A stretch of DNA of 64,000 bases from Candidatus Latescibacterota bacterium (GCA_022825835.1 JAJDVZ010000157.1:50322-114321); one strand, 5' to 3'; shown: positions 5,841 to 42,786, numbered from the stretch's first letter. The notes: a model not told the origin generated them from the letters alone. Made by a program: numbers and translations.

Positions 5841-6260
5841 TCACCCTACGAATGACTCCTCGCCTCTTTCCTTCTGTTTCTGCCTTATCTCGGCGATTTC
5901 TTCGCCTGTCAGACGTTCTTCGTCCGTTACAATAGTTTGTTCGATGAGTTCCAACTTCAATTCCCGGTTAGTCAGCCACTCCCAGCGATCGGCATTTGCC
6001 GGGTGGGGATGGGGATACACATCCTCAGGCCCAATGTCATCGGAGACGACATAGAGATAACCGGGCGTGACGCCGTTGTGCTTAATTCTGAGTTTGTCAG
6101 ATAGAGACTCCCCTTCGTCAGACATAGAAACAATTGATGGTCTATGCGAGAACGCTTTCGCCACATTTCTATTCTGTGTGATCGAACTCCCGACCCGCAG
6201 TTTCGTCAGCTCTTCCTGAGAGCCGTGATACCACGTAAGGCTGTAATCGCAGTTTGGCAT
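5841..6260 (-). CDS. hypothetical protein (139 aa), first gene of the A/T-richer patch
   Basis: Clean ORF. Its ATG overlaps (TAATG) the stop of the relic FMN-reductase 3' end. It has an N-terminal WYHGS motif but belongs to no family I can name. Confidence 0.55.
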   Translation of the reverse strand: MPNCDYSLTWYHGSQEELTKLRVGSSITQNRNVAKAFSHRPSIVSMSDEGESLSDKLRIKHNGVTPGYLYVVSDDIGPEDVYPHPHPANADRWEWLTNRELKLELIEQTIVTDEERLTGEEIAEIRQKQKERGEESFVG

Positions 6261-6372
6261 TAGATTTCCCAGTCCGATCCATAGGACCGGTTCTTGAGTC
6301 GCTCCGCAAGTTCGGTCAGTGCAGCTAGAGGCCTGTTTAATCTTGCCGTCGTTGCGTCGTCGAGTTCGCCTT
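6260..6372 (-). repeat. relic copy of the 3' end (36 codons plus stop) of the FMN-reductase gene; direct repeat of 9967-10079
   Basis: Hand alignment to 9967-10079 is ungapped over 113 bp with 9 mismatches. It encodes GELDDATTARLNRPLAALTELAERLKNRSYGSDWEI* and is closed upstream by an in-frame TAA (6371-6373). Confidence 0.85.
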
Positions 6373-6420: not shown

Positions 6421-7473
6421 TTACGAATACCCCAACATATATAGGGATTCAATGAGTAGCTGCACCCGGTGTTCATCACTAACACCATCCCATGTGGAGC
6501 AAAGTACCTCGAACGCCTTCATGGATACTTGGATTGGCACTGCAATGTCGTCCTCGATTTTATTATCCGTCAGTCCTTTGAATAGGTCTCTGCTTATCTC
6601 AAGGATTACATCGCTTACGGCCTCCTTCGTAAGGTTCCCGAGAATTCGCTCAAGTGACCGAGCCGTTGCGGACGAAACCCAGAGATTCACGGTATCTGAA
6701 TCTACTGGCTCACTTTGAACTCGAAAGTAGTATAGATTAGGATCAGTTGGTGAAGGAACATCGAAATACGGCTGGATCTTTATCCCAGCAGAGGTTGTAA
6801 CTGAATATCTCTTTTGATGGGTATCGCGTTCATAGATCCATAGACTCTTACTTCCTTTTCGGGCACCTCGCGGGGGCGTCTCGTTCCATTCAGCATAGAA
6901 GTCGGTGACATTCAACTTGCTGAGCCGTTGCTCAAAATACATGAACTCCCTCAATGTATTTTCCCACAAGAGCCACCCGATTCTCATATCCGGTTTCACC
7001 TCTGGTGCGCTCTTTCGCACATTCTCCGTCCTCTCATCAATGAGCGAGTTGTACTGCTCAAGCACATCCTGCATGACGGTATCCGCAGATTGGTCAACAT
7101 CTTCAATACGTATAGACCTTGTAGCAGACGGATGCATAAGTGTAGTACCACAAAAAGTTCTTATGGAACGTCCTCTTAGATTGCTACAGCGGAGCAATTT
7201 CTGTTCTACTCCAAGTCCCGAATGTATGACATCTATATTGAGATTGCTCCAACCGGTCTCAGGGATACCCTTCGCAAGACAGTAGACAGAGGTCCAATCT
7301 CCTTCCTCCATCTTTCGACCCATCATCGAAGCCACTTGCGTGGCAAGCCGTATTTTTGCATTGAGGGCTTCTTCGTCAGTGAAAGCCGGCAAGGTTGCAT
7401 TATGGTTAAGGTGAATCACTATCTCTGCACTCCAGTACTTCAAATGCGATCTCACGAAATGTAGAGAAGTCAC
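6421..7473 (-). CDS. candidate type II restriction endonuclease (PD-(D/E)xK)
   Basis: 350-aa ORF directly downstream of the DNA MTase. It contains NIDVIHSGLGVEQK (D-x8-E-x-K). The start is uncertain: GTG 7473 overlaps the MTase by 68 nt, with alternatives GTG 7419 and ATG 7326. Confidence 0.5.
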   Translation of the reverse strand: MTSLHFVRSHLKYWSAEIVIHLNHNATLPAFTDEEALNAKIRLATQVASMMGRKMEEGDWTSVYCLAKGIPETGWSNLNIDVIHSGLGVEQKLLRCSNLRGRSIRTFCGTTLMHPSATRSIRIEDVDQSADTVMQDVLEQYNSLIDERTENVRKSAPEVKPDMRIGWLLWENTLREFMYFEQRLSKLNVTDFYAEWNETPPRGARKGSKSLWIYERDTHQKRYSVTTSAGIKIQPYFDVPSPTDPNLYYFRVQSEPVDSDTVNLWVSSATARSLERILGNLTKEAVSDVILEISRDLFKGLTDNKIEDDIAVPIQVSMKAFEVLCSTWDGVSDEHRVQLLIESLYMLGYS

Positions 7474-9553
7474 TAAGTTCGTGATCCCTCACAAGAGCGT
7501 AACTCATCCACTCACTATAAAGAAATTTGTAATCAATCTCCTCTGACCGTGAAACATGAAGGTAAACTGTAGTAGGTACTCTTCCTCGATAATCCTGAAG
7601 GAAGTCACGTATCGATTCATTGAGTGAGAGACTAGGTGGCTGATGAGTAGTTTCGACAATGTCTCTTGTCTTTTTACAATGAATTACGAGGTCACAGCCG
7701 GCAGTGTTAGGACTGACGAACTGCTTAAATGTCGAATGCTGTTTGTCAAAGATGTCTGCTCGCTCTAAGGTAAATCCTGCTGCACGAATGGCTCTCTTTA
7801 GCTCTTCCCACACTTTGGCCGAGCTATTCATGAATATGAGCAGCATCCAATGCTCTTTGCGTAGAACTCGATGACATTCTGTTAAACTTCTCTGCATCAG
7901 CTCGCCATATTCATCTATGCCTTTTCCTTGAACTCGGTTGATGATTGCTTCATCACTCGGATCTGTAAACTCCCCAAGCCAAGATTCCCACAAGATGTTC
8001 ATCTCCGAGTAGTTGATATTTGCACCGAACGGCGGGTCTGTGAATACAAAATCTACTGATTCATCTGGGATACAACTCATTTCAGTCGCCGATCCACATA
8101 CAACAGCCTTCTTGGCCGTGTATTGGGTCGCCGTTGTTTCGATATGGTCGAGTATGTTTTCGGCTTTTCTACGAAAGGTCATAAACACATTTGCTTCGTT
8201 AAAAATAAAGGGTACGTTGAAGCGGGCCATGTTACCACTTCCACCCCAAAACCTGTACTCAGAGAGACGTGAAACCCTTTGATAAAGAGAGGTAAAAACA
8301 AAGGCCATTGCCGATGCAACTTCGATATCATCGATGCAATGGATTGCCCGCCATATCTGGCTTAGAGCAGCCAGATTTCTAGTTGTGTAAAAGGAGTCAA
8401 TAGAGGTTAATCCATGACGTTTCGGCTGATTCAGATTGACACCATCAGGCAACTCCGTGGTCGGAATATAACCAGTGGCGAAAGGCGCTTCTGCCTCAAT
8501 CTCAGCGATTCTACCAATATCCGCGTCGCTCGGTGGATGCTCGCGAATTTCATTCCTACAGCATTTGTAGCCGACTATAACAGGTTCTGCGTAGGTACGC
8601 GGGAGCTTCTTTTTTTGTAAAAGCTCTCCACATATAGGGCAATGAAAAGCAGCTAGAATCTTGTGTTCTCGAACGGTACGACCGTACTTGCGACTGTGAT
8701 CCCAAAGGATAAACTCAGCATCACAGCAGTAGCAATTCACCCTATAAGACCAAACGAAATAACTAGCTTCCACCGGACGTCCACATTCGCGGCAGTCAGT
8801 ACTGTATAGCCATTGTCTTAGATCAGCCAAGGAGTCCATGATTTCGTTTAGAGCCCCAACGAAGAGATCGGGATCCACTATTTCAGTGAAGTTGTGAGCG
8901 ATGAAGCATGCTGCAGGCGACAACTCATTTAGGATCACGTCGTGGCCGCTGATTCTAGTAGCTACGCCCGTCATGCCACTACCCGCAAATGGGTCCAACA
9001 CCAAGCCACCGTCGGGCAGATAGTGGTTGAGAAATTCCACGATACCTTGCGGTGGAACCTTAGTATGGTAAGTGTGGGCGTCATAGGTGTAGGTATTTTT
9101 TCCAGCACTAGCCCCAGTTGCCACTGGTTTTGCTGGAGTCTGAGCCGGCTGCAGATTACTAAGCAGCACGGACTGAAGAGATTCGGGCGAGCCGATCACG
9201 TCGCCGTTTCTCAGTCGTTTGAGTATTGGAGGATTTGGCGTTGAAAGTCGGCAGACCTTAGGTGTCTTCAAGAACAAATTCATCTGAGAGGTCTTAAGTG
9301 CTCGACGAGTAGCTCCTTTTGAGAGGAAGGCTTTCGACACGTCGGTTGGTCTCCGGTTAGCAGAGGAAAGAAGGTCTTTTATATGCTTCGACTGCTCTAT
9401 TGAGGGTTGGCCAACGCCGCGAGCCCACCGATCAATGGTTACAAGAGAGACCCCAAGCACCTGTGCGAGATGGGCAGGACTCATTGAGAGCGAGTCCTGT
9501 ATCGTCTGGAGTTGCTCCGCAAGTTCTTGGGGCGAGTTATTTGTGTTCTTCAC
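7406..9553 (-). CDS. site-specific DNA methyltransferase (N6-adenine or N4-cytosine) with N-terminal HTH domain and Cys-rich insert
   Basis: Motif I-like LVLDPFAGSGMTG lies upstream of motif IV FTDPPFG (I-before-IV order). N-terminal HTH: MSPAHLAQVLGVSLVTIDRWARG. Cys clusters: CRECG..CYCC and CPICG..CC. The likely start is GTG 9553, preceded by AAGAGGA; the track ORF extends to 9694. Confidence 0.8.
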   Translation of the reverse strand: MKNTNNSPQELAEQLQTIQDSLSMSPAHLAQVLGVSLVTIDRWARGVGQPSIEQSKHIKDLLSSANRRPTDVSKAFLSKGATRRALKTSQMNLFLKTPKVCRLSTPNPPILKRLRNGDVIGSPESLQSVLLSNLQPAQTPAKPVATGASAGKNTYTYDAHTYHTKVPPQGIVEFLNHYLPDGGLVLDPFAGSGMTGVATRISGHDVILNELSPAACFIAHNFTEIVDPDLFVGALNEIMDSLADLRQWLYSTDCRECGRPVEASYFVWSYRVNCYCCDAEFILWDHSRKYGRTVREHKILAAFHCPICGELLQKKKLPRTYAEPVIVGYKCCRNEIREHPPSDADIGRIAEIEAEAPFATGYIPTTELPDGVNLNQPKRHGLTSIDSFYTTRNLAALSQIWRAIHCIDDIEVASAMAFVFTSLYQRVSRLSEYRFWGGSGNMARFNVPFIFNEANVFMTFRRKAENILDHIETTATQYTAKKAVVCGSATEMSCIPDESVDFVFTDPPFGANINYSEMNILWESWLGEFTDPSDEAIINRVQGKGIDEYGELMQRSLTECHRVLRKEHWMLLIFMNSSAKVWEELKRAIRAAGFTLERADIFDKQHSTFKQFVSPNTAGCDLVIHCKKTRDIVETTHQPPSLSLNESIRDFLQDYRGRVPTTVYLHVSRSEEIDYKFLYSEWMSYALVRDHELSDFSTFREIAFEVLECRDSDSP

Positions 9554-9709
9554 GTCGCGTCCTCTTCGTCGTTCAGATCGAGTACCCAGCAGTCGGTCGG
9601 CGGCCAGCCGATGCAGATGCGGTCGTCCGCCAGCTCGGCACTGTGCCCGATAATCTTGGCGATCTTGGCGATGAAATCCAAGCACGCACAACACGATTAG
9701 GCATAGAAA

Positions 9710-9738: not shown

Positions 9739-9966
9739 AGGAACGTACTCGCTCGCTGATTTTTCAATAACGCTTTTTTTTGCGGAGGACGCAATAGCTT
9801 CTCTAGGTAGCTATACGTCTTTTGACACGCTGTCCTCAGTACATGACAGTAGTCTAAGTTGAGGTGCAGCCTTGATTTAGGTTTATTTATCATTACTCAG
9901 CTACAAATAAAGTTGGTTATGGATCGTACCCATTGGCAATTTGGTCACACCGATCAGAATGTGAAA

Positions 9967-10542
9967 TCAAATTTCCCAATCCGATCCATAGGACCGGCTC
10001 TTGAGCCGCTCCGCAAGTTCGGTCAGTACAGCTAGAGACCTGTTTAATCTTGCCGTCGTTACGTCGTCGAGTTTGCCTTCCGCCCAACTGTCGCCGTGGG
10101 CATACACGTTATACGGGCTGATAATGCACTTGAAATCCAGCATGAGGGATGTTGCCAGCGACGTAAACGCCATATAGCTGTGTGGCAGCCCGCCCGCATT
10201 GACGAACATCACTATTTTGTCGTAGAAAGCTCCTTTGAGCGACCCGTCTGGTGGCGTAGAGCCTATATATTCGACAAACTTCTTGAGTTCAGCGCAACAC
10301 GCCCAGTTGTACACTGGGCTCGCCAAGATGACGGCATCAGAGGCCGCAATGATTCTGTGGCACGATTGATACGCCTCGGATGAATAGATCTCGTCGTTGT
10401 CGAAATTTGGCGGATCGAGTTGTCGAAGATCGATGAAGCCAACAGAGATGCCCTTGTCCTCCAGAGCGGTCCGACACATGATAGCAAGCACCCTACTGTG
10501 ACTGTCGGGATCGAGACTACTGCTGACGACTGAAATTCTCAT
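9967..10542 (-). CDS. NADPH-dependent FMN reductase family protein
   Basis: 191 aa with a flavodoxin-like N-terminus MRISVVSSS and ILASPVYNW. Its last 36 codons (9967-10079) are duplicated at 6260-6372. Confidence 0.75.
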   Translation of the reverse strand: MRISVVSSSLDPDSHSRVLAIMCRTALEDKGISVGFIDLRQLDPPNFDNDEIYSSEAYQSCHRIIAASDAVILASPVYNWACCAELKKFVEYIGSTPPDGSLKGAFYDKIVMFVNAGGLPHSYMAFTSLATSLMLDFKCIISPYNVYAHGDSWAEGKLDDVTTARLNRSLAVLTELAERLKSRSYGSDWEI

Positions 10543-10551
10543 CTGAATTTC

Positions 10552-10973
10552 CTAAAGTGTGCCGGGTTGCGAACTTCCCCACGTCGAAGAGCGGGGAAAT
10601 TTATCTAGGCCATCGGGAATCTTGGACCACGGGACTGCCATTTCGGTCCAGATCTCGCGAGTGGGGCGCAGATCTTCGGAGTGGTCTAGGGTGCCGGCCT
10701 TGATGAATATCGTGTCGGGGTAGCGTGTGAACAATTGCGAGCCACACTCTGGGCAGAATTCACGAACCTTTGTGCGGCCCTCGTCATTCGTAGATTCGTA
10801 TCCCTTGGTTTTACCGCTTAGTTGAAATGTGGAAGCTGGTACGCCAACTCCAACATTGAAAGCACTGCCCGTGCCCTACGGCAGTCGTCACAGTGGCAAT
10901 ATATCACGGATTGTGGTTCTGAGTCGCTTGTATAGCTGACCGCCCCGCAAAGACATCGACCTGTTAGCGGCAT
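10552..10973 (-). pseudogene. GFA-family (CENP-V-like, glutathione-dependent formaldehyde-activating) gene with a 1-nt frameshift
   Basis: MPLTGRCLCGAVSY...CHCDDCRR in one frame continues as GTGSAFNVGV...EFCPECGSQLF... in another. The break maps to a G3 run (C-run 10874-10876 on +); one extra G would restore CRRGTGSAF. Confidence 0.7.
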
Positions 10974-11042
10974 TGGTAATCCTTTCCAGATAAACGAGTG
11001 TGCCGATTGTGGCGATGCGTTCAATTCACAGCGTTTGCTGAT

Positions 11043-11705
11043 CTACAAGCCTTCTCTTTTGACGGCGAAGAAAAATGGGTGAATCTCCTCTAGTGCATCA
11101 ACACTTTCGTATCCTCCTCCTACGACACCTTCCTGTTCAACCTGAAACCCAGTCTCAGTAAGAAACTTCTCGTAGGTCGAAGGGCCAAAGTTGCTCCAGT
11201 ACATGGTCTCGCCGAAGAAGTCATCTTCAGTATATCCAGGACCGTCGTCTTGCCTAGCAATCGTAAATAGAAGAAGGCCACCGGGTCGAAGCCACTGTGC
11301 AAATCGACGGAAGAGATTTAGATGCTCTTGTCTTGGGATGTGGAAGATGGCGTAAAAGCTGACAATTGCATCGAAGCTAGATGCAGGGAATTTGGTCTCC
11401 ATTACGTCGGCGATGACGAATTTGGCGGTGGGGGCGTTTTTCTTCGCTAGAGCTATCATGTTTGAGGAGATGTCGATTCCAGTGAGGCTGAACGTCTCTG
11501 CAAGATGTCGGGCGACGGGGATACCGGCACCACAGCCAACGTCGAGGACTTTTGAATTAGGTGACAGACGCTCAGTTATCAGGTTGAGCTCCGCTCCAGG
11601 CGTAGTACGTTTTTGTCCCGCGTAATTCATCGCACACCGGTTATAGGCGGTTCTTACCAGTTCCCGATAATCGGCGTCTGGATCGTCAGCAATTTTGAAT
11701 GGCAT
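11043..11705 (-). CDS. class I SAM-dependent methyltransferase
   Basis: 220 aa with motif I VLDVGCGAGIPVA. Confidence 0.75.
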   Translation of the reverse strand: MPFKIADDPDADYRELVRTAYNRCAMNYAGQKRTTPGAELNLITERLSPNSKVLDVGCGAGIPVARHLAETFSLTGIDISSNMIALAKKNAPTAKFVIADVMETKFPASSFDAIVSFYAIFHIPRQEHLNLFRRFAQWLRPGGLLLFTIARQDDGPGYTEDDFFGETMYWSNFGPSTYEKFLTETGFQVEQEGVVGGGYESVDALEEIHPFFFAVKREGL

Positions 11706-11716
11706 GTGTCCCTTTC

Positions 11717-12076
11717 CTAGATCACTTCACATGTTACGGACGATTCGAAAAATCGCTCTTGGAATTCCGTTAAAGCGAAGATCTGCTCGTCAGAGTAGTC
11801 CTTGCCGTCAGGTGCGACAACGAGTTTGTCATCATCGTCATCAGATCGTTGAATGACGGCGATACATCTGCCTGTGAACGTCTCTAGCGGTTTGAAAATG
11901 CCGAGGATATAGGCGTCCATATCTTCTCCGTCAGGTGCCGGTACATTCGGGAGAAATCCGTAGTTGACCGGATAGATGAAGCCCGCTTCAGGATGTTTGG
12001 AGCCGAGGGGTCGATCTATGGTAACATCGACGGTTTTGCCGATGAACGTCCTTGCATCTACAAAGTCACTTGTCAT
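11717..12076 (-). CDS. inorganic-pyrophosphatase-like small protein
   Basis: 119 aa. DRPLGSKHPEAGFIYPVNYGFLP..DGEDMDAYILG resembles the family I PPase core. Confidence 0.5.
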   Translation of the reverse strand: MTSDFVDARTFIGKTVDVTIDRPLGSKHPEAGFIYPVNYGFLPNVPAPDGEDMDAYILGIFKPLETFTGRCIAVIQRSDDDDDKLVVAPDGKDYSDEQIFALTEFQERFFESSVTCEVI

Positions 12077-14733: not shown

Positions 14734-15720
14734 CTACAGCGGCTTGGCCACGGCTAAGCCCGTGCCGACTGCTGACACGCGATTCCATCCCGACCCTCTG
14801 AGACCGGCGTAGATCATGTAATAGGTCCCATTGATCGCGAACACCTGTGGGGTCAGGAGGCCGTCGCAATCCCAGGCATCGGCATTGGCCGCAGGTGTGA
14901 AGATTGGGTTGTGTGGGTTGGGTTCGAAGGTGCGGAAGTCGCGCGTGCGGACGTGCCCAATGGTCCAGACCTTGCCGTCGTAGCCGCCGTAGAACAGATG
15001 GAAGTAGCTTGGCCCTTTGAGGATTTCTGCTTCGCGCACGCCATAGCGGTCCCACGCCTGCCCTGAGCCGGAAAATACGGGATTGGCGGGATTTTTGGTG
15101 ACTTGCGCCGGGTCGCTGGTCGGTGCGGTGGCATGGCAGATGGTCGGCACGTTGTAGAGAATATCGCGCCGTTCAGGAGGAGCTGGCGACTCGCCGGTAT
15201 AGACCATGTGAATCACATCGCCCGACACGGCTACGGATGGATGGGAAGAGCCGTGTTGCTCGTGCGCGCCGCCGACGGCAACTACTGGTGCATTGCTAAC
15301 CCGCGTCCACGCTCCGAAATCGCCGTCGCTGACTAGCAGGCCGGTCTGTTTGCGGCGGGGCTTGTCCTTGCCTTGGGTGCCGAGATAATAGGCGTAGTAG
15401 CGCTGGTCGGCGGGATTCCAGAACGGGAATGGGTATTCCACGCCGTGATTGTCGAATCCGTCGGCGGAAGGTAGCAGTATGGGATTGCGTTGGTCGTGCG
15501 TTACCGCCGTAGGGTCGGCGACCGGCGCGGAGCTGTGCATGTGTACCCAGCTACCATCTCCTCCTTTTTTGGCCCACAGATAATGCACAGTATCGTCCAC
15601 GACGATGGCGTGACTGGCAGCGGCCCACGCGGGTGGCGCGCAGTACAGCAGCGGCTTCTCGGCGGTGAGCCGCTCGAAGCGGGCGAATGCTGCGAATGGG
15701 ATTGGGGCGTTGGGATTCAT
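14734..15720 (-). CDS. beta-propeller glycoside-hydrolase-like protein (GH43/GH32/GH130-type fold; family not resolved)
   Basis: 328-aa ORF. Its first ~27 codons (PIPFAAFARFERLTAEKPLL) are repeated at 20011-20063 and 21251-21336. Confidence 0.55.
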   Translation of the reverse strand: MNPNAPIPFAAFARFERLTAEKPLLYCAPPAWAAASHAIVVDDTVHYLWAKKGGDGSWVHMHSSAPVADPTAVTHDQRNPILLPSADGFDNHGVEYPFPFWNPADQRYYAYYLGTQGKDKPRRKQTGLLVSDGDFGAWTRVSNAPVVAVGGAHEQHGSSHPSVAVSGDVIHMVYTGESPAPPERRDILYNVPTICHATAPTSDPAQVTKNPANPVFSGSGQAWDRYGVREAEILKGPSYFHLFYGGYDGKVWTIGHVRTRDFRTFEPNPHNPIFTPAANADAWDCDGLLTPQVFAINGTYYMIYAGLRGSGWNRVSAVGTGLAVAKPL

Positions 15721-15740
15721 AGCGGTTTGCTAGGTGATTA

Positions 15741-16940
15741 TCAACTCGTCATCAAGTTGACGTAGTCCAGTACCCCCGAAAAGCCTCTGCTTCCATAGGG
15801 CACCAGGGCACCCGGCAAGTCTCCCTCTGCGACAAGAGCGCGCAGCAGTTCGCTGTCGGACGCTCGGCGTACGGTTGTGAATCCGTCTTTCTTAACCAGC
15901 CAGAAGCTCTCGTCGAGTTCTGCTCCGTTTAGAAAATCGGGAGAGTGGGTCGAAACGAATACTTGGCCGCCACGTCGAGCGTAGTCCCGAAATTCCTCGG
16001 CCAATTCTATTAGCAATTCGGGATAGAGCTGGTTTTCGGGTTCTTCGACTGCCAGCAACGGATGGGGTTTTGGGTCATACAGCAAGACGAGATAGGCGAA
16101 CATCTTGATCGTACCATCGGAGACATAGCGGGCAATGAATGGGTCCTTGAAGCTGCCATCCTGAAAGCGCAGGACGAGACGCCCGTCCTCTGTTGATTTG
16201 GATTCAACGCCGCTCACGCCTGGGACTCGCTGGCTCATAGCTTTCAGCACTTGATCGAAGCACTCGCGGTGATTCTCGTAGAGGTACTGGGCCACTTGGG
16301 CGACGTTATCGCCACGGTTAGACAGATGCTCGGCATAGCCGGCCTCACTGCTTGGTCGGGCGTCGGCAATGTGGAAGTCCGAGACGTGCCAGTTCTCGAT
16401 CAGGCTGCGGAATTCCGAGACGACTTGGAACTCGCGGAACTGGCCCAAGCCTTTGATCGCGAGGACGCTCGGGTCGTCGAGCTTGTACTCCGCTCTCTTT
16501 TCTTTTACTTGTTCCTGACCATAGACTGATTCATTTGTGATTGCAGTTCCGATTCCGCCTGAGAAATCAACGAAATGCCAAGGGCGTCCAGACTGCTCTT
16601 TACGGTAGTGCAGTACTTCGCGTTCAACCGAGACTCGGCCATCCTTCGCTGCTATTTCGAGTTCGTAGATGGCTAGACGGCCGCCGCTCTCACGGAATTT
16701 GATGGTGATCCCAATGGGCCCATTTTCGCCTCGACTGACCAGTTCGCGGAACCCGCCGCGTTGCGCCACCGCTGTGGTGACGTTCTGGGTCAGCGCGTCC
16801 TTGAGAAAGCTAAACACGTCGAGTAGAGTTGACTTGCCCGTGCCGTTCGCGCCCACGACTACGACCATTGGGGGTAAATCATCAAACACGACGTGGCGGA
16901 AGGAACGGTAGTTTTTGATTTCAATCTGCTCAATCCGCAT
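15741..16940 (-). CDS. ABC-type AAA_15/AAA_21-like ATPase (OLD/PtuA/AriA-like ATPase module, no nuclease domain)
   Basis: 399 aa with Walker A GANGTGKST, Walker B LLAVEEPENQLYP and H-loop VSTHSPDFL. A GGAGAA SD sits upstream. Its last 7 codons lie in the repeat shared with copy B. Confidence 0.85.
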   Translation of the reverse strand: MRIEQIEIKNYRSFRHVVFDDLPPMVVVVGANGTGKSTLLDVFSFLKDALTQNVTTAVAQRGGFRELVSRGENGPIGITIKFRESGGRLAIYELEIAAKDGRVSVEREVLHYRKEQSGRPWHFVDFSGGIGTAITNESVYGQEQVKEKRAEYKLDDPSVLAIKGLGQFREFQVVSEFRSLIENWHVSDFHIADARPSSEAGYAEHLSNRGDNVAQVAQYLYENHRECFDQVLKAMSQRVPGVSGVESKSTEDGRLVLRFQDGSFKDPFIARYVSDGTIKMFAYLVLLYDPKPHPLLAVEEPENQLYPELLIELAEEFRDYARRGGQVFVSTHSPDFLNGAELDESFWLVKKDGFTTVRRASDSELLRALVAEGDLPGALVPYGSRGFSGVLDYVNLMTS

Positions 16941-17004
16941 AGGTTATTTCTCCGTATTGTCGAACATTACCGTTGAGCTGGACCGGCTGCTCCGTTGGCG
17001 GCTA

Positions 17005-17709
17005 TCACGATTCATCGAGTGACCGGCGAAGGGTCGCGGTCAATTTCTGACGGAAATCGTCGTCATTATCCCTAGACTTAGACCAAATAACGGTCGTGCA
17101 GTGATTCGTATCGAAGTGGGTTCCATCTTTGCTCTCAAATTTTTCCTTTTCGCAAATATAGATGACAGGCTTGCCTAGACCCTCTGCGTAACCAGCCTCC
17201 CAGTACGCGCCATTGTTGCCGTGAGTAAGATCGGCAATGACGAACTTCGCGTCTCTGATTCGGACGCGCATGATATTGTCGATGATACCCGCCTTTGGGA
17301 CATCACGCATATCAACTAGACTGCAGCCAATATCCTCTTTCACCGCCGGTTTCACAACCTCCCGAACAAAGGATTCGAGATCGTCATCGTTGAACTGCAT
17401 GGCGAGGAAACCGTAATTTCCAGCGAACTCACCTCGTTTTTCCGCTTCGTACTGTTTCCATCCGGCAAGGGTAAGGTTTACATTCGGAAATCTCGGCCCG
17501 AGTGTCTCTTTGCTAGGTTCTCCCATTATTATGAGGTCGTGTTCATACAACTCTTTAATGAGTTGCTTGGCCAATTCCTCACTCGGAGCACCAATCTTCT
17601 TGCTGATTCTGTCAATATGGGGGATTGGTTTGCCTGATTCCGATACTTGGTCTCCAATATATCGAATGAGATTCATCGCCTGCACCGCAGGACTTGTGAA
17701 TTCGCTCAT
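17005..17709 (-). CDS. wHTH-like N-terminal domain fused to a nucleoside 2-deoxyribosyltransferase/TIR-like (SLOG-superfamily) domain
   Basis: FLAMQFNDDD...KFVIADLTHGNNGAYWEAGYAEGLGKPVIYI matches the NDT-family signature. ATG 17709 has an AAGGAA SD; the alternative ATG 17748 overlaps the MTase gene end. Confidence 0.65.
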   Translation of the reverse strand: MSEFTSPAVQAMNLIRYIGDQVSESGKPIPHIDRISKKIGAPSEELAKQLIKELYEHDLIIMGEPSKETLGPRFPNVNLTLAGWKQYEAEKRGEFAGNYGFLAMQFNDDDLESFVREVVKPAVKEDIGCSLVDMRDVPKAGIIDNIMRVRIRDAKFVIADLTHGNNGAYWEAGYAEGLGKPVIYICEKEKFESKDGTHFDTNHCTTVIWSKSRDNDDDFRQKLTATLRRSLDES

Positions 17710-17734
17710 GTCGGTTCCTTTTGCTAAGAGTGGC

Positions 17735-19995
17735 TTATTCGCATCCATTCGCTAGGTTAAGTGCCAGCAGTTTTCCTAACGACTCGTCCTCCGAAATACC
17801 TGCATCCCATCCATAAGCCGACGCCACAGCCGCGTCGAGAGTCGCGTGTGCATCCTTGAGCCATTGAGGGCGGGCGTTGTACAGATTGGTCAGCGTCCGC
17901 TTCTTGAGTTCCTTTGCCACCGCTTCGTCTCGTGGAACCGGACACTTGGGATAGCCGGGCACCGGCTCGTCCACCCATTCCACCCATTCGGGCGGGTTGA
18001 GCCAGCGGTCGCGCAGTTCGACTAGTCGCCGTGCTGCTTCGGCGATGGCAACGGCACGCGGATCACTCGCGTAATCCGAAGCCGGAATGTCGGGCGACAA
18101 CCCTTCTGGGAAGGGGAAGGTCTCGAAGGTGGTGGTCGGCGTGTAGCGCGGATCGTTGCCCTTGCCGAGCCATGTGCAGAGCCGCAGCGACCATGCCTCG
18201 TGGAAGCGACTGTGCAGGATGCCGAAGGTGGTGTCGTCGTCGCGGGCGATGACGATCAGTTGGCAGTCGGGATAAATCCGGGCATCAAGCCACGCGAACA
18301 GTCTGTGCTTGGCAACGCGCGGCGTGGCGATGTAACGGGGCAACACGCCAATATTTTTGAACATGTTCTGTCCTGACCGGTCGTGTCTCCACCATAGGTC
18401 CCGCAAGTCCTCGCGATTGTTCTCGTCCCTTGTAGGCTTCACGTGTTCGAGGATGTGCGCGAACGGTGTCTCGTAAAGTGCGGCGTCAGCTTCGCTTGTC
18501 TTATGTCCAAAATCGACAATCCATTTGCCAGCAGGCCGACGAGTCACATCCATACCGTTGAACCATGGTCTCAGAACATCGGCGTTGGGACGCCCGTTTG
18601 GATTCGCGGGCAGACATAGCCATTCTCTAGCCAGATCTCCCGGGACGTCGAAACGCCCCTTCTTATAACCACCGATAAATGCCGTACGTCGGTTCCGTGG
18701 CAACTTACCCGCTTTCGTAAGATCGGCAGGCTCAGCGGTAAGATCAGCGTTGATCTGGAACACGTCGCCTCCGTCCAGACGCGCCGATAATCCGGCTTCC
18801 TCAGACGCGAAACATATCAACGAGACCCTCACGTCGGCACCATCAACTACCCAGGGTTCATCGGACCAAGCATCGAAAATCGCTGCCTGTTCAACTATCC
18901 GGTCAAGTACTGTTCGATTCTTCCCTCCTCTAATCGAATTCGTGGCGACGAGACCGGCGCGAGAGATCTTTCCCCGATCTACTAGTTTGCCTCCCTTATG
19001 GAACCAGTAGCAGACGAGGTCGGCGGAGGCTGGAATGGCGTTGGTGTAGCACCGGCGCAACTTATCAGTATAGTCGCCGCCGAGGACTTCACGCATGGGC
19101 GAATAGCCTAAGAACGGCGGGTTTCCGATCACCACGTCGGCTGCCGGCCATTCCGGTTCTTCGCCGTCTGGGGTCAGGATCGCATCGCGGCATTCGATGG
19201 TGTCGAGCGGCTTGAGGACTGGATTGTTCGTCCCAGGATAGCCGTTGCGTCGCATCCACTGGATATGTCCGATCCACACTGACACGCGCGCTAATTCGGC
19301 GGCGTAGGCGTTGAGCGAGCCATGGCGGCGAACTCCTCCGGCTGCTGCCGCGCCTGCTCCAACATCCGCGTGAACATATTGTTCGGCAAAAGGCCCACGT
19401 CTTCGGCGAACATGCAGAACACCAGCCGATTGATGAAATGCGCCACCGCCTGCGGGTCATGGCCGCGTTCTCGCAAGGCTTGTGCCAGCAACGCAAAGGC
19501 CGAGGCCGCCCGCTCGGTGAGCGCCTGCCGGGTCTCGTCTGGCCGCAGCCGCTCAGGGTCGGATAGTGCCCACTTGAGCTTGTCGCGGACAGCGGCATCG
19601 GCTAAATCGTCGATCTCGAATTCGTGGGTCTTGCTGACGCTGTTGGTCCAATTGGTGCGGATGCGGAACTGCCGCATGTCGGAGACGATCAAAAGCGGCG
19701 GGTTTTCCAAAGCCAGCGCGTATTGCCTAAGTTGGTCAAAGGCCGCGTCTAAGTTGGCACGCGGGCCCTTGTACTCCCAAGCGAAGCAGTGTCGCTTCCA
19801 CACGTCGGCCCAACCATCGCCGCCGGTTTCCTTGCGAGCACCCTTCTCAAAGCAGTACGTATCGCCGGTAGGGTCGGCCTCGGCCGGGGTTGGCTCGCCG
19901 AGCAGCCGGCACAAGTCGATGAAGTGCTCCTGAGCAGCCGAGCTTTCCTTGAGTTCGACGGCACGCCACTTGGTAATGAATATCTCTGGAGTCAT
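17735..19995 (-). pseudogene. MmeI-family (type IIL-like) restriction/N6-adenine methyltransferase gene, split by an internal out-of-frame deletion
   Basis: The N-terminal ORF (19291-19995) has DVWKRHCFAWEYKG (PD-ExK-like) plus a helical connector. The C-terminal ORF (17735-19285, different frame) starts at NAYAAELARVSVWIGHIQW and has motif IV VIGNPPFLG. No AdoMet motif I (DPxxGxGxF) occurs in either ORF. Confidence 0.7.
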
Positions 19996-20010
19996 GGTGC
20001 TACGGTCACT

Positions 20011-20103
20011 AGCCGCTTGAAGCGGGCGAATGCTGCAAATGGGATTGGGGTGTCGGTCTGCATAGCGGCTACTAGGTGATCATCATCTCGCCACCAAGCT
20101 GAA
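20011..20103 (-). repeat. copy B of the hydrolase-gene 5' end plus ~40 bp of its upstream region
   Basis: Hand alignment to 15668-15761 shows one 1-bp indel and about 15 mismatches. It encodes the relic MQTDTPIPFAAFARFKRLV. Confidence 0.8.
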
Positions 20104-20109
20104 TGACAG

Positions 20110-20640
20110 TTACCTATTCAGCACCTTTTCCTGAAACTGCTCGTACGCCTCATATACGTCTTCTGGATCGGGAACAACCGGCATTGTGCGAATCCGACCG
20201 TGTGCATACCAATTCCGAAACCCGAAGTATCCCTTGGTCACCGAGCAAACCCGCCGAAACGCCTCGTCGATGTCTCGGAAACATTCTCGTAACTTGTCGA
20301 AGATCCGCTCAAGGGGAATCCGCCTACACGCCTGAGTAGCCTGTTTGCCAACTTGACGGGTCTCACGGCGATATTCCGCACACAGATCGCGATACGCTCT
20401 GCTTACTCTATCGCGCTTTTTTCGTTATAGAGATACGAGAAAATCCTCTCGGATACCTGCCTCCAAGAGCGTAAGGAGCTTGAACGCGTAGTCCTTGCGT
20501 ATCTCCTCAAGCAGGTCGGCACGAAACTCATCGCGCTCAGTCGGTGTGAAAGATTCGAAATGCTCGTCGCCGAGGTCGCGCACATTTTGTTGGAGCAAGA
20601 CGTACCATTCGAGGAGCGAATCACAAGTGAACTCGCTCAT
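20110..20640 (-). pseudogene. HEPN-like (R-N-W-Y-A-H) protein gene interrupted by one in-frame TAA (20425-20427)
   Basis: The frame from ATG 20640 reads 71 codons to a TAA, then stays open for 104 more codons to TAA 20110-20112. The second half contains GYFGFRNWYAHGR (an Rx4H motif) and no internal ATG. Confidence 0.65.
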
Positions 20641-20642
20641 TT

Positions 20643-21107
20643 TTACTCTTCTAGGAACTCAGCTAGAAATTCCTCTAAGGTGCTTTTATTGAATTCCCAC
20701 CGTGTAGGTTTCCCGTATCTACCCTCTCTCTTCGCAAAGTCCCACTCGTCATTTCCTTTATGCAGCAGCATTGCGAGCAGGGTGCTGCCCGAGATCACAT
20801 CGACTCGCCCTTGAGTACCTATAATAAAACGTCCGACTGGTCTGAGGGTGAGTATCTGGCTATCTAAAAAGATAAGTCGTAGAGATTGGGCTTCGTAATC
20901 TCCAAGCTGGTCTTCCCGAATCGGAATATTCTCTGACTGGATTTCCAGCCAGTTTTTGTCTTTAAGAGGCTGTAACCACTCAGCTATCTTCGACATGAGC
21001 TTTTCGCAGTTGGCTATCCATTCCTGACGAACTGCTACATGTTCAAATTCCGACGCTTCCTGTTGTTCTTGTTTCTGCTTCAGTATGTCCTCAAGTAGTT
21101 TGGCCAT
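20643..21107 (-). CDS. hypothetical protein (154 aa), upstream operon partner of the HEPN-like gene
   Basis: Strong SD (AAAGGAGAG) before ATG 21107. Its stop lies 2 nt before the HEPN-like ATG. I recognise no family. Confidence 0.65.
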   Translation of the reverse strand: MAKLLEDILKQKQEQQEASEFEHVAVRQEWIANCEKLMSKIAEWLQPLKDKNWLEIQSENIPIREDQLGDYEAQSLRLIFLDSQILTLRPVGRFIIGTQGRVDVISGSTLLAMLLHKGNDEWDFAKREGRYGKPTRWEFNKSTLEEFLAEFLEE

Positions 21108-21250
21108 TTATATCTCTCCTTTGCTGCAATTTGAACGAGATATTGTCTGCCGTCCAAGACCGAGACCGCACGGTTAGCGGTAAGGCAGTACGCTTTCTCA
21201 ATATCCGACCGATTGGATTGCTTCGCAATGGTCGGACCGCCCCCCAGCTC

Positions 21251-21336
21251 GCAGTGCAGCAGCGGCTTCTCGGAGGTGAGTCGCTCAAAGCGGGCGAATG
21301 CTGCAAATGGGATTGGATAGTTGATCGTCATAGCGG
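21251..21336 (-). repeat. copy C of the hydrolase-gene 5' end (27 codons)
   Basis: Ungapped hand alignment to 15640-15725 with about 12 mismatches in 86 bp. It encodes MTINYPIPFAAFARFERLTSEKPLLHC and then diverges. Confidence 0.8.
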
Positions 21337-21445
21337 CCTGCTTGAAGCGAGATTGGCGACTGGGTAGATTGACTGAATGAGGTTGTCCAACATATCACGC
21401 GCCCCGCACTCGTTCAAGCCACCTAAAAACCCAAGGAACCCTCCA

Positions 21446-22786
21446 ATGCCTCGTCCCAATATCCTCTTCATCATGGATGATCAGCACCGCCACGACTATC
21501 TCGGCGTTGCCGGTGCCGACTTCCTGCGGACGCCCAACCTCGACCGCCTTGCCGCCGCTGGCGTCCGCTTCACCCAATGCACCACCAACGCTCCCGTCTG
21601 CGCACCGGCGCGGATCGGCTTGGCCTCTGGCCTGCAATCGAGCCGTCTCGGCTGCTTGGACAATTCGGGGCGGCTGCCCTCGGGCACCACCACCTACTAT
21701 CAGCGGCTACGCGACGCCGGCTATCGCGTCGGTTGCGTTGGCAAGCTCGACCTGCGCAAATCCGATGGCTACAATGGCCGCTACGGCGACCGGCCCTACG
21801 CCTATAGCTGGGGCTTCACCCATCCAGAGGAATGCGAGGGCAAAATGCACGCCGGCTCCTCGTCCACGCCGATTGGTCCCTACACGCACTACCTAGCCGA
21901 CGAAGGGAAGTTGGCGACATTTCACCAGGACTATCGACAACGGGCTGCCACCAGTTGGATTACCGACTGCCGCGATTCGCCGCTGGACAGCGCGGACTTT
22001 GAGGATGCCTATATCGGTCGCCGCGCTGCCGAATGGATCGCCAATGTACCCGACGACTTCCCTTGGCACTATTTCGTCAGTTTCGTCGGCCCGCACGATC
22101 CCTTTGACCCGCCGACCGAATACGGCGACCGCTACCGCGACGCGGCAATGCCCCCAGCCATCGACGACTCCCTCGCTGGCAAACCCGAGTGGATCAAAAA
22201 ACGCGCCGCATACTTCGCGCGCGACCAAATCGCCCAAACCCGCCGCCAATACTGCGCCGCCATAGAACTCATCGACGACCAGATCGGCCAGATCCTCGAC
22301 GCGCTCGAGAAACGCGGCCAGCTCGACAACACCTATATCATCTTCTCCTCCGACCACGGCGAGCTGCTCGGCGACCATGGGCTGTACACCAAGAGCGCCG
22401 CGTACGAGGCCAGTCTGCGCGTACCGCTGATCATCGCCGGACCGGATATCGCCGGAGGCCGCGTCTGTGACGCGCTGTGCGAACTTATCGACCTCAATGC
22501 CACGATATGCGACTTCGCTCAGCTCGCGCCGCAGCAAGATATTGACGCCCGCTCGCTGCAACCGATCCTCGACGGCCAGACCGACACCCACCGCCAAGAG
22601 ACAGTCGCTGCTCTGCGCAACTTCCGCTGCATTCGCACGGGTACGCACAAATACATCCAGAATTACAACGACTGCGACGAACTCTACGACCTTGAACAGG
22701 ATCCCGACGAGTTGGACAACATCGCCGCTACTGCCCCTGATGTGGTTGGCGATCTCGCGCGTCGCTTACGTCGTCGTTTGGGCTAA
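21446..22786 (+). CDS. arylsulfatase-family sulfatase (formylglycine type)
   Basis: MPRPNILFIMDDQHRHD and the CAPAR (CxPxR) nucleophile motif. ATG 21446 follows AAGGAA; the track ORF starts upstream at 21377. Confidence 0.85.
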   Translation: MPRPNILFIMDDQHRHDYLGVAGADFLRTPNLDRLAAAGVRFTQCTTNAPVCAPARIGLASGLQSSRLGCLDNSGRLPSGTTTYYQRLRDAGYRVGCVGKLDLRKSDGYNGRYGDRPYAYSWGFTHPEECEGKMHAGSSSTPIGPYTHYLADEGKLATFHQDYRQRAATSWITDCRDSPLDSADFEDAYIGRRAAEWIANVPDDFPWHYFVSFVGPHDPFDPPTEYGDRYRDAAMPPAIDDSLAGKPEWIKKRAAYFARDQIAQTRRQYCAAIELIDDQIGQILDALEKRGQLDNTYIIFSSDHGELLGDHGLYTKSAAYEASLRVPLIIAGPDIAGGRVCDALCELIDLNATICDFAQLAPQQDIDARSLQPILDGQTDTHRQETVAALRNFRCIRTGTHKYIQNYNDCDELYDLEQDPDELDNIAATAPDVVGDLARRLRRRLG

Positions 22787-24625: not shown

Positions 24626-24903
24626 GGTGGCCTTTCCTGATGGTAATTTCTGGTGATCAATGTCTAGGATTTGCATCGTAAACGCAACGAGTACAAGCTG
24701 CAGGAAAGCTGGAACACGGAGACCATACAGCTAATTTGCCGATTTGACTATGTTCAAAAGGAATTATATTACTTGACTAACGGACCAAAACTCCCTATTC
24801 AATGACTTTTGCTGTACCCAAGGACACTGCAGCGGGCGAAACTATCGCCAATCAATCATCTGACCAAAGAGGCAACCGAGTGATCCACTATCTGGATTGG
24901 TAA

Positions 24904-25416
24904 ATGCTGGATTTGAACGAATTGGACACTGACGACATCCCCGGTATCTCACGAGCAAAGGGTAACGAGTTGGCCGAAGCTGGAGCCGTTTGCCTAGAAT
25001 CTCAGGGTCATACACCAGGTACTTGTCTCACTATTCGTAATGACGCTAACAACAGTTATCGGCTAGATTGGCCGCAGGTCACTGACCAAGTCCGCCGGAC
25101 TTGGAATGACGATGAGGAAGCTACCGAAGACGGTGCTGCCGGCATTGCTGTCCTACTGGCAAGTCGGGAAATCGGTTACACGGTTGTATTGCGTTCACGA
25201 AAGGGTACTGGATTCGATTATTGGCTCGGGGACGATGCACTAGACTTTAAAGCAAGGATGGAAGTGTCCGGCATCCGAAATGGTAATGATGGCCAAATCA
25301 AGACAAGAGTGAAACAGAAATTGCGCCAGATGAATCGGTCGGATGATCAGGAATTACCGGCTTACGCAATCGTAGTTGAATTCGGGCGGCCACTTACCGA
25401 AATAAAAAAGAAATGA
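24904..25416 (+). CDS. hypothetical 170-aa protein with a PD-(D/E)xK-nuclease-like motif pattern
   Basis: E75 (ATEDGAAGIAVLL), D105 (GTGFDYWL) and E120-V-S (ARMEVSGI), followed by a K/Q-rich helix. Codon usage looks A/T-richer. The ORF is ATGA-coupled to the next ORF. Confidence 0.6.
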   Translation: MLDLNELDTDDIPGISRAKGNELAEAGAVCLESQGHTPGTCLTIRNDANNSYRLDWPQVTDQVRRTWNDDEEATEDGAAGIAVLLASREIGYTVVLRSRKGTGFDYWLGDDALDFKARMEVSGIRNGNDGQIKTRVKQKLRQMNRSDDQELPAYAIVVEFGRPLTEIKKK

Positions 25417-26543
25417 ACTCAGTTAATGATCTCCACAAAAAAGCTATGGAATTCGCAGACCTCGGTCTCAGAAGAAGGGCGCGTGGCAATGCGGAAGAAT
25501 CCATAGAGTATTTTGAGCAGGCACTTCACTATGAATTGGCTGCCATTGACGAGCTTGACAAAACAGAGGCGTTGGCTTGGTCAGTGTTGCATCGCAGCGC
25601 TGGTACCTTGGCCTTAGATTGCAGGGACTTTCTCCAAGCCGAGAAAATAGTAGCCACTGCTCTGGCGCAGGAACCGCATCCAGAGGTTGCGGAGGAGTTG
25701 CGCGACCTTTTGGAGCAGATTTACTTCCAAAGGCACCTCGATCTGAAAGGCATTACTTTGCAGGAGGATGAGATTCAGTTGAGTCTCTCAGGTCAAGAAG
25801 TGGGGAATGGTTTTGTCAACGTGGAGGAAATATATGAGCGTATCAGCAACTCGTCGAAACTGATTCACCGTACCATTGAGCGAAAGCAAGACCGGCCTTT
25901 TCGGGAGAGAGGGCCTGCACTAAAAGCAATACGGGAAAATTACCAGACGCTGGTTTCTGTGCCTAGGACCGGGAGTTTCTCAGTGACGCTTAAATTCAGC
26001 AGGCCACAACTATCTTTTTCGGGAATGCTCGAGACGACTGCTATCATCGATGAGTTCATGGACTTACTTACATTGATCAACAGCTCCCACATCATCGAAA
26101 TACAGAAGCGCATTCCTGACCCTGCTTATCTGCGGAACTTCTTTGGTTTGGCAAAAAGAATTGCGCCCGATGGCGAACGAATCAGTCAGGTGGGTTTTAC
26201 CGCAATTCGTGACGGAGTACAACGTTCTGTAGGGCTTACCAAGCCAGCGGAGGAACTTCCATCACTGCCGCCAGAAATGTTATCGTCGCCGCAAGTCGCG
26301 CTGAAGCAGACTCCAAGCGAACCTATAGAAATACGCGGGGTATTACGCCACGCGGATGCGATGCGCGAAGATAGCAATGTCATACAAGTTATTGATGGCA
26401 AGAAAAAACACATCGTACAGGTACCAAAGGGCATGATGAATGACATCGTGCGCCCCATGTGGGATTCGCACGTGATAATACAAGGTGTAGATACTGGCGA
26501 ACATATCATGCTGGAGGACATCCGGCTAGACGACTCAGCTTGA
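25413..26543 (+). CDS. hypothetical 376-aa protein (helical TPR-like N-terminus, beta-rich C-terminus)
   Basis: Clean ORF overlapping the upstream stop by 4 nt. I recognise no family. Confidence 0.6.
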   Translation: MNSVNDLHKKAMEFADLGLRRRARGNAEESIEYFEQALHYELAAIDELDKTEALAWSVLHRSAGTLALDCRDFLQAEKIVATALAQEPHPEVAEELRDLLEQIYFQRHLDLKGITLQEDEIQLSLSGQEVGNGFVNVEEIYERISNSSKLIHRTIERKQDRPFRERGPALKAIRENYQTLVSVPRTGSFSVTLKFSRPQLSFSGMLETTAIIDEFMDLLTLINSSHIIEIQKRIPDPAYLRNFFGLAKRIAPDGERISQVGFTAIRDGVQRSVGLTKPAEELPSLPPEMLSSPQVALKQTPSEPIEIRGVLRHADAMREDSNVIQVIDGKKKHIVQVPKGMMNDIVRPMWDSHVIIQGVDTGEHIMLEDIRLDDSA

Positions 26544-26631
26544 GACCGCTGGCTTACCTCACGTCCTTTACTACCTTCCCAATCCCGCCACAGAAATTGA
26601 CGCGATTCGGTCCCTTGCCTTTTGTTGCAAG

Positions 26632-42156: not shown

Positions 42157-42786
42157 ATGGCGAAGAAGAAACCTGTTGCCAAGAAGAAGGCTGCTAAGAA
42201 AAAAGCGGCTGCTAAGAAAAAGGCCGCTCCGAAGAAAGCTAAGAAGGCTGCCGCCAAGAAGAAGGCCGCTCCGAAGGCTAAGAAGGCCGCTCCGAAGAAG
42301 GCTAAGAAAGCTGCTGCCAAGAAGAAGGCTGCTCCTAAGAAGAAGGCTGCCGCCAAGAAAAAGGCCGCCCCTAAGAAGGCTAAGAAGGCTGCCGCTAAGA
42401 AGAAGGCCGCTCCGAAGAAGAAGGCTGCCGCTAAGAAGAAGGCCGCTCCGAAGAAAGCTAAGAAGGCCGCCGCCAAGAAGGCCGTCTCTAAGAAGGCCGC
42501 CAAGAAAAAACCCGTCGCAAAGAAAAAGGCGAAGCGCAAGCCCAATCCTGCTTTTATGAGGCCCTTGCAGCCCGACGCCGCCCTTGGGGCCATAGTCGGC
42601 AACAAGCCATTGCCGCGTACTCAGATCACCAAGAAAATCTGGGCGTATATCAGGAAGAATGGTCTGCAAGACCAAGAGGATAAGCGCATGATCAATGCCG
42701 ACGATAAGCTGCGGGCCGTCGTAGGCGGCGCGAAGAAAGTGAGCATGTTTGACCTGACCAAGCATGTTAGTGAGCACGTGGAATAG
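42157..42786 (+). CDS. histone-H1-like Lys/Ala-repeat tail fused to a SWIB/MDM2 domain
   Basis: The N-terminal ~125 aa are AAKKKAAPKKAKK-type repeats. The C-terminus PLPRTQITKKIWAYIRKNGLQD...INADDKLRAV is a SWIB-domain signature. An AAGGAG SD is present. Confidence 0.85.
   Translation: MAKKKPVAKKKAAKKKAAAKKKAAPKKAKKAAAKKKAAPKAKKAAPKKAKKAAAKKKAAPKKKAAAKKKAAPKKAKKAAAKKKAAPKKKAAAKKKAAPKKAKKAAAKKAVSKKAAKKKPVAKKKAKRKPNPAFMRPLQPDAALGAIVGNKPLPRTQITKKIWAYIRKNGLQDQEDKRMINADDKLRAVVGGAKKVSMFDLTKHVSEHVE
42166..42540 (+). repeat. coding low-complexity tandem repeat (GCN/AAG codons, about 78-nt super-period)
   Basis: AAAKKKAAPKKAKKAAAKKKAAPKKK recurs about three times. It creates long artefactual ORFs in other frames and on the opposite strand. 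Confidence 0.85.

Follow-up and report, generated by a model that had tools for sequence, protein, structure and literature searches.

Why should the 5′ end of a single gene occur three times, always in the same orientation, within a few kilobases of a bacterial genome, with unrelated genes packed between the copies? The question is raised by a stretch of 64,000 nucleotides (nt) from a Candidatus Latescibacterota genome (the whole of which is called the window below), in which the start of a gene for a GH130/GH43-like beta-propeller hydrolase is repeated twice upstream of the intact gene, the copies and the genes between them all lying on the minus strand. An initial annotation of this DNA had read the copies as the borders of two stacked cassettes, inserted at an att-like hotspot with no recombinase in sight. 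The copies are confirmed here by a repeat search and by pairwise alignment, and the interval between the hydrolase gene and a divergently oriented sulfatase gene turns out to be a hotspot whose content varies from one related genome to the next. Foreign defence genes have probably entered this hotspot by a recombinase-independent joining process that duplicates part of the target, and have then been reshuffled by homologous recombination.

The three copies of the hydrolase gene start

The repeat search of the window groups the three copies as one family, and their identities were taken from pairwise local alignments. Copy A (15636-15760) is the working start of the hydrolase gene, with its ATG at 15720-15718, together with about 40 nt of upstream DNA that has a homologous counterpart in front of copy B. 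Copy B (20011-20102) consists of about 40 nt of upstream DNA, an ATG (20063) and 53 nt of the hydrolase start, while copy C (21247-21342) is the original gene start with its native upstream DNA, cut after position +86. Copies A and C are identical at 81 of 96 positions (84.4%) in an ungapped alignment of 15731-15636 with 21342-21247. Copies A and B share 78 of 92 positions (84.8%) with one 1-nt gap (15760-15668 against 20102-20011), a span that includes the roughly 40 nt upstream of the ATG, and copies B and C share 49 of 59 (20069-20011 against 21337-21279). The peptides and open reading frames (ORFs) quoted in the initial annotation are correct, as is its statement that the shared upstream stretch supplies, in copy A, the last codons and the stop of the neighbouring ATPase gene.

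All three copies contain exactly the same 29-nt core, CCAATCCCATTYGCAGCATTCGCCCGCTT, which is found three times on the minus strand of the window and in none of 100 dinucleotide shuffles of it. The core translates to PIPFAAFARF, and the protein motif PIPF..F..F is kept in distant homologues from other phyla; because the motif is conserved, the conservation of the core in the working gene needs no recombination function. The sequence CCGCTATG is also nearly constant across all copies. As had been proposed, native upstream DNA is present only at copy C, where the 45 nt upstream are the same as in five genomes that carry an empty site (see below). The motif of about 40 nt that precedes copies A and B was found with nhmmer only at the present locus in all of the DNA fetched, and it is more varied at the ends of the c2 unit (the two genes between copies B and C) than at the ends of the ATPase gene. 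A comparison of the motif with a distant c2 locus (L108), made as a test of a c2 origin, was not significant, with 101 of 500 shuffles scoring equally.

The copies were also inspected for structure and for expression signals. DNA folds of both strands of copies A, B and C gave z-scores from +0.3 to -2.2 and no structure common to the three, the search for attC-like or dif-like symmetry or folds was negative, and a scan for consensus promoters and terminators returned no more sites than in shuffled sequence. Copy B opens a mini-ORF of 23 codons (19992-20063), the TGA of which overlaps the ATG of the adjoining MmeI-like restriction-modification gene (ATGA). This overlap is present in all five genomes that have the junction, and it would be compatible with translational coupling of the MmeI-like gene to the captured gene start; it is the one hint in favour of expression from a displaced promoter, as suggested in the initial annotation.

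Occupied and empty sites in related genomes

The hydrolase protein was used to retrieve about 20 Candidatus Latescibacterota metagenome-assembled genomes (MAGs), many of them closed chromosomes, in which the orthologues show 89-98% amino acid (aa) identity; the window proteins were then mapped onto these loci, which were read over 8-21 kb each. Five genomes (L006, L008, L009, L011 and L013) have precisely the empty site that had been predicted, that is, a sulfatase gene directly divergent from the hydrolase gene, with upstream DNA as at copy C. The sulfatase (in the window 21377-22786, plus strand; Pfam Sulfatase, 4.2e-43) is conserved in the relatives and constitutes the left flank of the hotspot.

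Between these same flanking genes at least ten occupancy states were observed, all drawn from a set of modules that comprises the c2 pair, the MmeI-like gene, a TIR/NDT-like gene (NDT, nucleoside-deoxyribosyltransferase), a HEC-01 ATPase with or without a DUF4276 gene, and a NERD/UvrD helicase. The shorter contents are an ATPase (L005), ATPase-DUF4276 (L007), NDT-ATPase (L001, L002 and L110), NDT-ATPase-DUF4276 (L010) and variants of c2 (L015, L039 and L012). Longer arrays read c2-B-MmeI-NDT-ATPase-DUF4276 in L004, which is the order of the window plus the partner gene of the ATPase (frameshifted in that assembly), ATPase-B-MmeI-(ATPase fragment)-c2 in L014, c2-helicase-NDT-ATPase-DUF4276-B-MmeI-(556-aa ORF on the other strand)-(ATPase fragment) in L003/L105, and ATPase-(partial DUF4276)-c2 in L106, where the hydrolase is deleted from about +50. 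The claim that all cassette genes point the same way as the hydrolase gene holds in the window but not in L003, in which one gene of the array is on the opposite strand. Conserved flanks around a variable, defence-rich content across related genomes are the marks of a defence-island hotspot, and the proposal of repeated insertion at the hydrolase 5′ end, each event leaving an intact gene start, is supported.

In two genomes the distance between the sulfatase and the hydrolase is much longer, namely 81 kb in OZ244790.1 (loci L030 and L080/L102) and 98 kb in OZ253462.1 (loci L074 and L094), with parts of the array at both ends; at the sulfatase end, the former has the junction of copy C with c2 and the latter that of copy B with the MmeI-like gene. 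The wide spacing may result from a large insertion or from a rearrangement. A giant mobile element between the copies was considered but gained no support from the part read: the 10 kb beside the hydrolase of L030 hold metabolic genes, a second HEC-01 pair and RmuC, and no integrase. A scan of metagenomes for the core yielded one extra locus only, of an already known type. Two further observations concern the hydrolase gene itself: in L106 a hydrolase start is fused to the end of a MatE gene (7045-7110), and in L074 the gene is interrupted by about 1.2 kb (10531-11720).

Anatomy of the junctions

The copies had been taken to delimit two discrete cassettes, and the relatives contradict this. 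The supposed first cassette, between copies A and B, is made up of parts that are also met on their own; the left end of the MmeI block is constant while its right ends vary, and the c2 unit is found with four different left contexts. A shared core with a fixed point of crossover is not seen either. Orphan hydrolase starts end at +17 in L105 (copy D, before the helicase unit), at +53 in copy B (before MmeI) and at +86 in copy C (before c2). Copy D barely enters the 29-nt core, so that any core shared by all junctions could measure about 28 nt at most. A left-hand copy is missing from most occupied relatives, in which the insert begins at -11 relative to the old ATG, and some junctions lie inside other genes. 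Specifically, in L014/L074 the joint between the ATPase gene and the c2 unit lies within the former, at a GAGC microhomology; in L030, 49 nt from the interior of the ATPase gene are joined to the hydrolase ATG via eight shared bases, ATGAATCC; and in L102 the helicase unit has its junction within the second c2 gene, beside an IS1-like insertion. In view of the variable end points, the mostly missing left-hand copies, the junctions inside genes and the lack of an attC-like fold, the att-like and integron-like framing of the initial annotation gains no support.

Other junctions recur unchanged. The junction of copy B with the MmeI-like gene is present in five genomes (the window, L003, L004, L014 and L094), in three different left-hand contexts, and the junction of copy C with c2 is present in two (the window and OZ244790.1, there in L080/L102). 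The left half of each copy, codons 2-4 included, matches the preceding unit and the right half matches the following unit. Copy B of L014 and L094 combines an ATPase-type (A-type) left half with an MmeI-type (B-type) right half, a hybrid state which shows that recombination took place within the copies.

Search for mobility genes

In agreement with the initial annotation, no integrase or transposase was found among the approximately 50 ORFs of the window, which are otherwise ordinary metabolic and housekeeping genes, nor among the larger array ORFs scanned in the relatives (six in L030 and four in L003). Searches of the window, and of the arrays of the relatives as read, gave no intI, no Phage_integrase match and no match to any other recombinase. 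The sole transposase seen is that of the IS1-like insertion inside c2 in L102.

A second insertion, at the FMN-reductase gene

The window contains another, independent arrangement of this kind, this time at the 3′ end of a gene. The flavin mononucleotide (FMN) reductase gene (9967-10542), like the features named with it, lies on the minus strand; its 3′ end and stop codon form part of a repeat (9953-10079) that recurs as an orphan FMN-reductase 3′ end at 6246-6372, the stop of which overlaps the start of a 139-aa ORF (5841-6260). The two repeats are direct, 127 nt long and 88-89% identical, and they bracket a 3.6-kb unit of low G+C (45-50%). The insert (6421-9694) is a restriction-modification (R-M) unit, consisting of an N6/N4 methyltransferase gene (7406-9694; Pfam N6_N4_Mtase, 3e-14) and a putative restriction gene of 350 aa (6421-7473). 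An empty site exists in L015 and L106, where FMN_red is directly followed by the 139-aa ORF and the R-M unit is absent. Between the two FMN-reductase copies of the window identity is 89.0%, and against the orthologues of L015 and L106 it is 83.5-85.4%. Since the copies are closer to each other than to the orthologues, they indicate duplication in place and argue against the import of one of the copies.

Long target duplication

Insertion with long target duplication was first described for R-M genes of Helicobacter (Nobusato et al. 2000, Gene 259:99) and was later seen for all types of R-M system in many bacteria (Furuta, Abe & Kobayashi 2010, Nucleic Acids Res. 38:2428, PMC2853133). The latter authors required (i) an R-M insert of less than 20 kb, (ii) flanking repeats of more than 30 bp, (iii) an empty site in a relative and (iv) the absence of mobility genes; such repeats often span start or stop codons, thereby sparing the target gene (PMC2853133). 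In the window the inserts measure 1.2, 4.3 and 3.6 kb, all below 20 kb, and the flanking direct repeats measure 92, 96 and 127 nt, all above 30 bp. Empty sites are present in relatives for both target genes (the five genomes named above for the hydrolase, L015 and L106 for the FMN reductase), and mobility genes are absent from the approximately 50 ORFs. The block between copies B and A, whose MmeI-like gene is a fused R-M gene, and the FMN-reductase insert both contain R-M genes, whereas the c2 unit between copies C and B does not. The MmeI block and the FMN-reductase case therefore show every one of the published features, and the locus is an instance of insertion with long target duplication and no new mobile element.

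The likeness to the published cases extends to short R-M inserts, long direct repeats of variable length, a single copy at the empty site, the lack of mobility genes and the spanning of a start or stop codon. There are also differences: here two events are stacked on one gene start, the c2 unit has no recognizable R-M genes while the other insert combines R-M with other defence genes, the repeats are 83-89% identical instead of nearly identical, and the host is an uncultured member of the Latescibacterota.

A possible course of events

According to the explanation favoured here, illegitimate joining of incoming defence genes would duplicate 28-180 nt of the target. Where the start codon falls within the duplicated stretch, the hydrolase gene would be left intact and a truncated orphan start would remain upstream of the insert. 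The arrangement in the window may then have been built as follows: (i) the site was empty; (ii) the c2 unit entered, duplicating about -11 to +86 and leaving copy C; and (iii) a block of the MmeI-like gene, the NDT-like gene and a truncated ATPase gene entered the c2-hydrolase junction, duplicating about -40 to +53 and leaving copy B. Entry at this junction would account for the likeness between the end of c2 and the DNA upstream of copy A, and the same step would explain an ATPase without its own C-terminus and without its partner gene. That copies A and B share 40 nt upstream in addition to the coding part is expected if one interval was duplicated. From then on, the duplicated pieces would be available as islands of homology of 50-100 nt, at which homologous recombination between the arrays of related strains could generate permuted orders, hybrid copies and deletions. 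We infer this order of events and the joining chemistry, and the inserted genes may be expressed by read-through or by translational coupling.

Several points weigh against this course of events. The copies are only 83-85% identical, which would call for old events or for a diverged donor. The right-hand junction of copy B is the same in five genomes with three left contexts, and such constancy would require either repeated crossovers within about 60 nt or repeated precise insertion, the latter of which would point to a site-specific activity. The proposed course does not account for the repeated use of -11 as a breakpoint. The c2 unit, being devoid of R-M genes, falls outside the strict published definition. 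The loci were read over 10-20 kb per relative, and the arrays of 81-98 kb in two genomes extend beyond this. Finally, long target duplication is itself mechanistically unexplained.

Alternative explanations

A possible, if doubtful, alternative is that the gene start was supplied by the donor. In this form of homology-facilitated illegitimate recombination, the donor DNA would consist of a cassette, the cassette end and a hydrolase start; homology in the hydrolase gene would secure one end of it, and the other would be joined illegitimately within the start of the recipient gene, so that the orphan copy would be the recipient's and the working copy the donor's. The 15% divergence between the copies would thereby be explained without great age. 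Moreover, the junctions cluster where homology between strains ends and show microhomology, the identity of the hydrolase to its relatives is uneven between 100-nt windows, and a process of this kind has been put forward for the stacked orphan arrays of type VI secretion system (T6SS), Rhs and contact-dependent inhibition (CDI) loci (PMC5361080). However, a donor-supplied start gives no simple account of the likeness to the c2 end in the 40 nt upstream of copy A, the FMN-reductase copies are mutual closest relatives, and a sliding comparison of the hydrolase revealed no donor tract linked to the type of cassette.

Site-specific recombination at an att site in the hydrolase start, driven in trans by a recombinase such as a host Xer-like enzyme or a helper integrase, is unlikely. 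The cassettes would in that case be non-autonomous elements stacked by accretion, comparable to cis-mobilizable elements (CIMEs), integrative mobile elements exploiting Xer (IMEX elements) or pdif modules. Three direct copies with an exact 29-nt core, the constancy of the copy-B junction next to different left neighbours, a nearly invariant CCGCTATG, the recurrence of breakpoints at -11 and the single orientation of the cassette genes in the window all fit such an enzyme. The variable end points of the copies do not, given that no core above about 28 nt is common to all junctions, and neither do the single-copy state of most occupied sites and the joining of units inside unrelated genes. In addition, the window and the loci read yielded no such recombinase (the IS1-like transposase in L102 being the only enzyme of this kind seen), the protein motif accounts for the conserved core, and the copies show no attC-like or dif-like symmetry or fold.

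It is improbable, too, that the hydrolase start is a dedicated capture site, at which an activity encoded elsewhere or as yet unrecognized inserts defence genes precisely behind the resident start codon, to be expressed via the promoter and ribosome-binding site of the host gene through translational coupling, for which the ATGA overlap between the copy-B mini-ORF and the MmeI-like gene would serve. If true, the capture site would represent an integron-like cassette system without integron integrase and attC sites. The decay of tandem hydrolase paralogues, or else an assembly artefact, has nothing in its favour beyond the repeated gene starts and can be dismissed, as every relative has at most one full-length hydrolase at the locus, defence genes make up the DNA between the copies, and the junctions of copy B with MmeI and of copy C with c2 both recur in independent assemblies produced by different methods.

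Comparison with other stacked or variable arrays

Variable defence hotspots have been described in E. coli (PMC10121019) and in P. aeruginosa (core defence hotspots, cDHS; PMC10250203). They resemble the present locus in having fixed core flanks, a fast turnover of content, some empty sites and exchange that presumably proceeds via homologous recombination in the flanks, and they differ from it in that the junctions here leave duplicated fragments of gene ends within the array. In Rhs/CDI C-terminal displacement and in the T6SS immunity arrays of V. cholerae (PMC5361080), modules are likewise stacked without a recombinase, each behind a fragment of a constant gene; a homology-anchored illegitimate origin has been proposed, and the fragments later permit homologous recombination. 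There, the repeated fragment belongs to a toxin gene that is completed by the modules, whereas here it is the start of an unrelated housekeeping-type hydrolase gene and the modules are self-contained. Integron arrays and the tandem accretion of CIMEs share with this locus units of the same orientation, repeated sites and an adjacent resident promoter, and non-autonomous units of this sort can lack a recombinase; unlike them, the present locus has no intI, attC hairpins, fixed crossover or discrete unit boundaries.

Genes of the hydrolase locus and their state

The intact hydrolase gene occupies 14734-15720 (Pfam Glyco_hydro_130, 5.9e-08). It is followed, in the direction of the sulfatase and with all genes on the minus strand, by a HEC-01-type ABC ATPase gene with an aberrant C-terminus (15741-16940; PADLOC HEC-01, 573 bits; Pfam AAA_21/AAA_15), whose last 20 or so codons differ in reading frame from the L004 orthologue (region 15741-15800). 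HEC-01, a candidate system, pairs the gene of an ABC ATPase with that of a TOPRIM-like DUF4276 protein, and no protection by it was seen in the sole published assay (bioRxiv 10.1101/2024.01.29.577857). The DUF4276/TOPRIM-like partner gene is missing in the window and present in L003, L004, L007, L010, L102 and L105. The next gene encodes the NDT/TIR-like protein (17005-17748; Pfam Nuc_deoxyrib_tr, 4.3e-05, which is below the curated cut-off; PADLOC TIR effector, 5.8e-10).

The MmeI-like type IIG R-M gene (17735-19995; Pfam MmeI_N/hel/Mtase/TRD/C; PADLOC REase_MTase_IIG) reads as two ORFs in the window, 17735-19285 and 19291-19995. It is intact in L003 (945 aa), and about 587 extra bp are present at the point corresponding to 19314/19315 in L003, L004, L014 and L094; the window gene is inactivated by an internal deletion of about 590 bp at this point. 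Beyond copy B lies the c2 unit (20110-21107), composed of a first gene of 154 aa (20643-21107) and a second gene, a homologue of 176 aa (20110-20640), neither of which has a match in Pfam or PADLOC. An in-frame TAA (20425-20427) interrupts the second gene. Seven relatives read AAA or CAA at this codon, and the gene is intact, with 176 aa, in L108. Three of the four defence units of the window are broken or incomplete (the MmeI deletion, the c2 nonsense codon and HEC-01 without its partner), and the defence island is decaying in this genome. The cassettes had been described as A/T-richer than their surroundings, which is right for the second cassette and for the NDT-like gene (46-51% G+C) but not for the MmeI part (57-64%).

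Two more features of the window lie outside the hotspot. A third island of low G+C (24640-26629) contains two ORFs (170 and 376 aa) without a family match; it is absent from L080 and L012 and present in L005, L039, L094 and L106, and no direct repeats were found to flank it. A tandem array of units of about 60-63 nt (42181-42521) is located inside the gene of a SWIB/MDM2-domain protein (42157-42786).

MmeI-like genes in other phyla

Relatives of the MmeI-like gene, searched with the L003 gene (4458-7295), are found at 70-80% protein identity on at least 579 stretches from MAGs of many phyla and taxa, including Binatia, Gemmatimonadota, Acidobacteriota, Chloroflexota, Alphaproteobacteria, Entotheonella and Poriferisodalis. 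Similarity between these loci stops at the start codon, beyond which the flanks are unrelated, and the gene may accordingly be transferred across phyla as a single-gene unit; the names of the MAGs suggest that the hosts belong to sponge-associated communities. Flanking direct repeats, which recall those of the hydrolase locus and speak for the same kind of insertion, were present at 5 of about 75 loci of such paralogous MmeI-like genes; these include a 178-nt repeat of 96% identity in L149 (3504-3681 and 7716-7893), which spans the stop codon of a 676-aa ORF, and a 72-nt repeat of 93% identity in L186 (3824-3895 and 7064-7135). In L178, the DNA directly upstream of the ATG of the MmeI-like gene (about 3931-4000) contains two partial, degenerate duplicates of that gene's own 5′ end, as if these stacked 5′ ends were displaced earlier alleles.

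Significance

The locus offers a natural series for the study of long target duplication, a process that is still unexplained 25 years on. In about 20 closed or nearly closed genomes it provides no fewer than five independent events, in which about 28, 92, 96, 127 and 178 nt were duplicated, in addition to empty sites, hybrids and stages of decay. Such a series is useful for working out the rules of joining (microhomology and the position with respect to start and stop codons), and it may help to answer whether the insertion of restriction genes is promoted by the enzymes that they encode. The locus also shows that defence genes other than those of R-M systems can enter a genome in the same way as R-M genes do.

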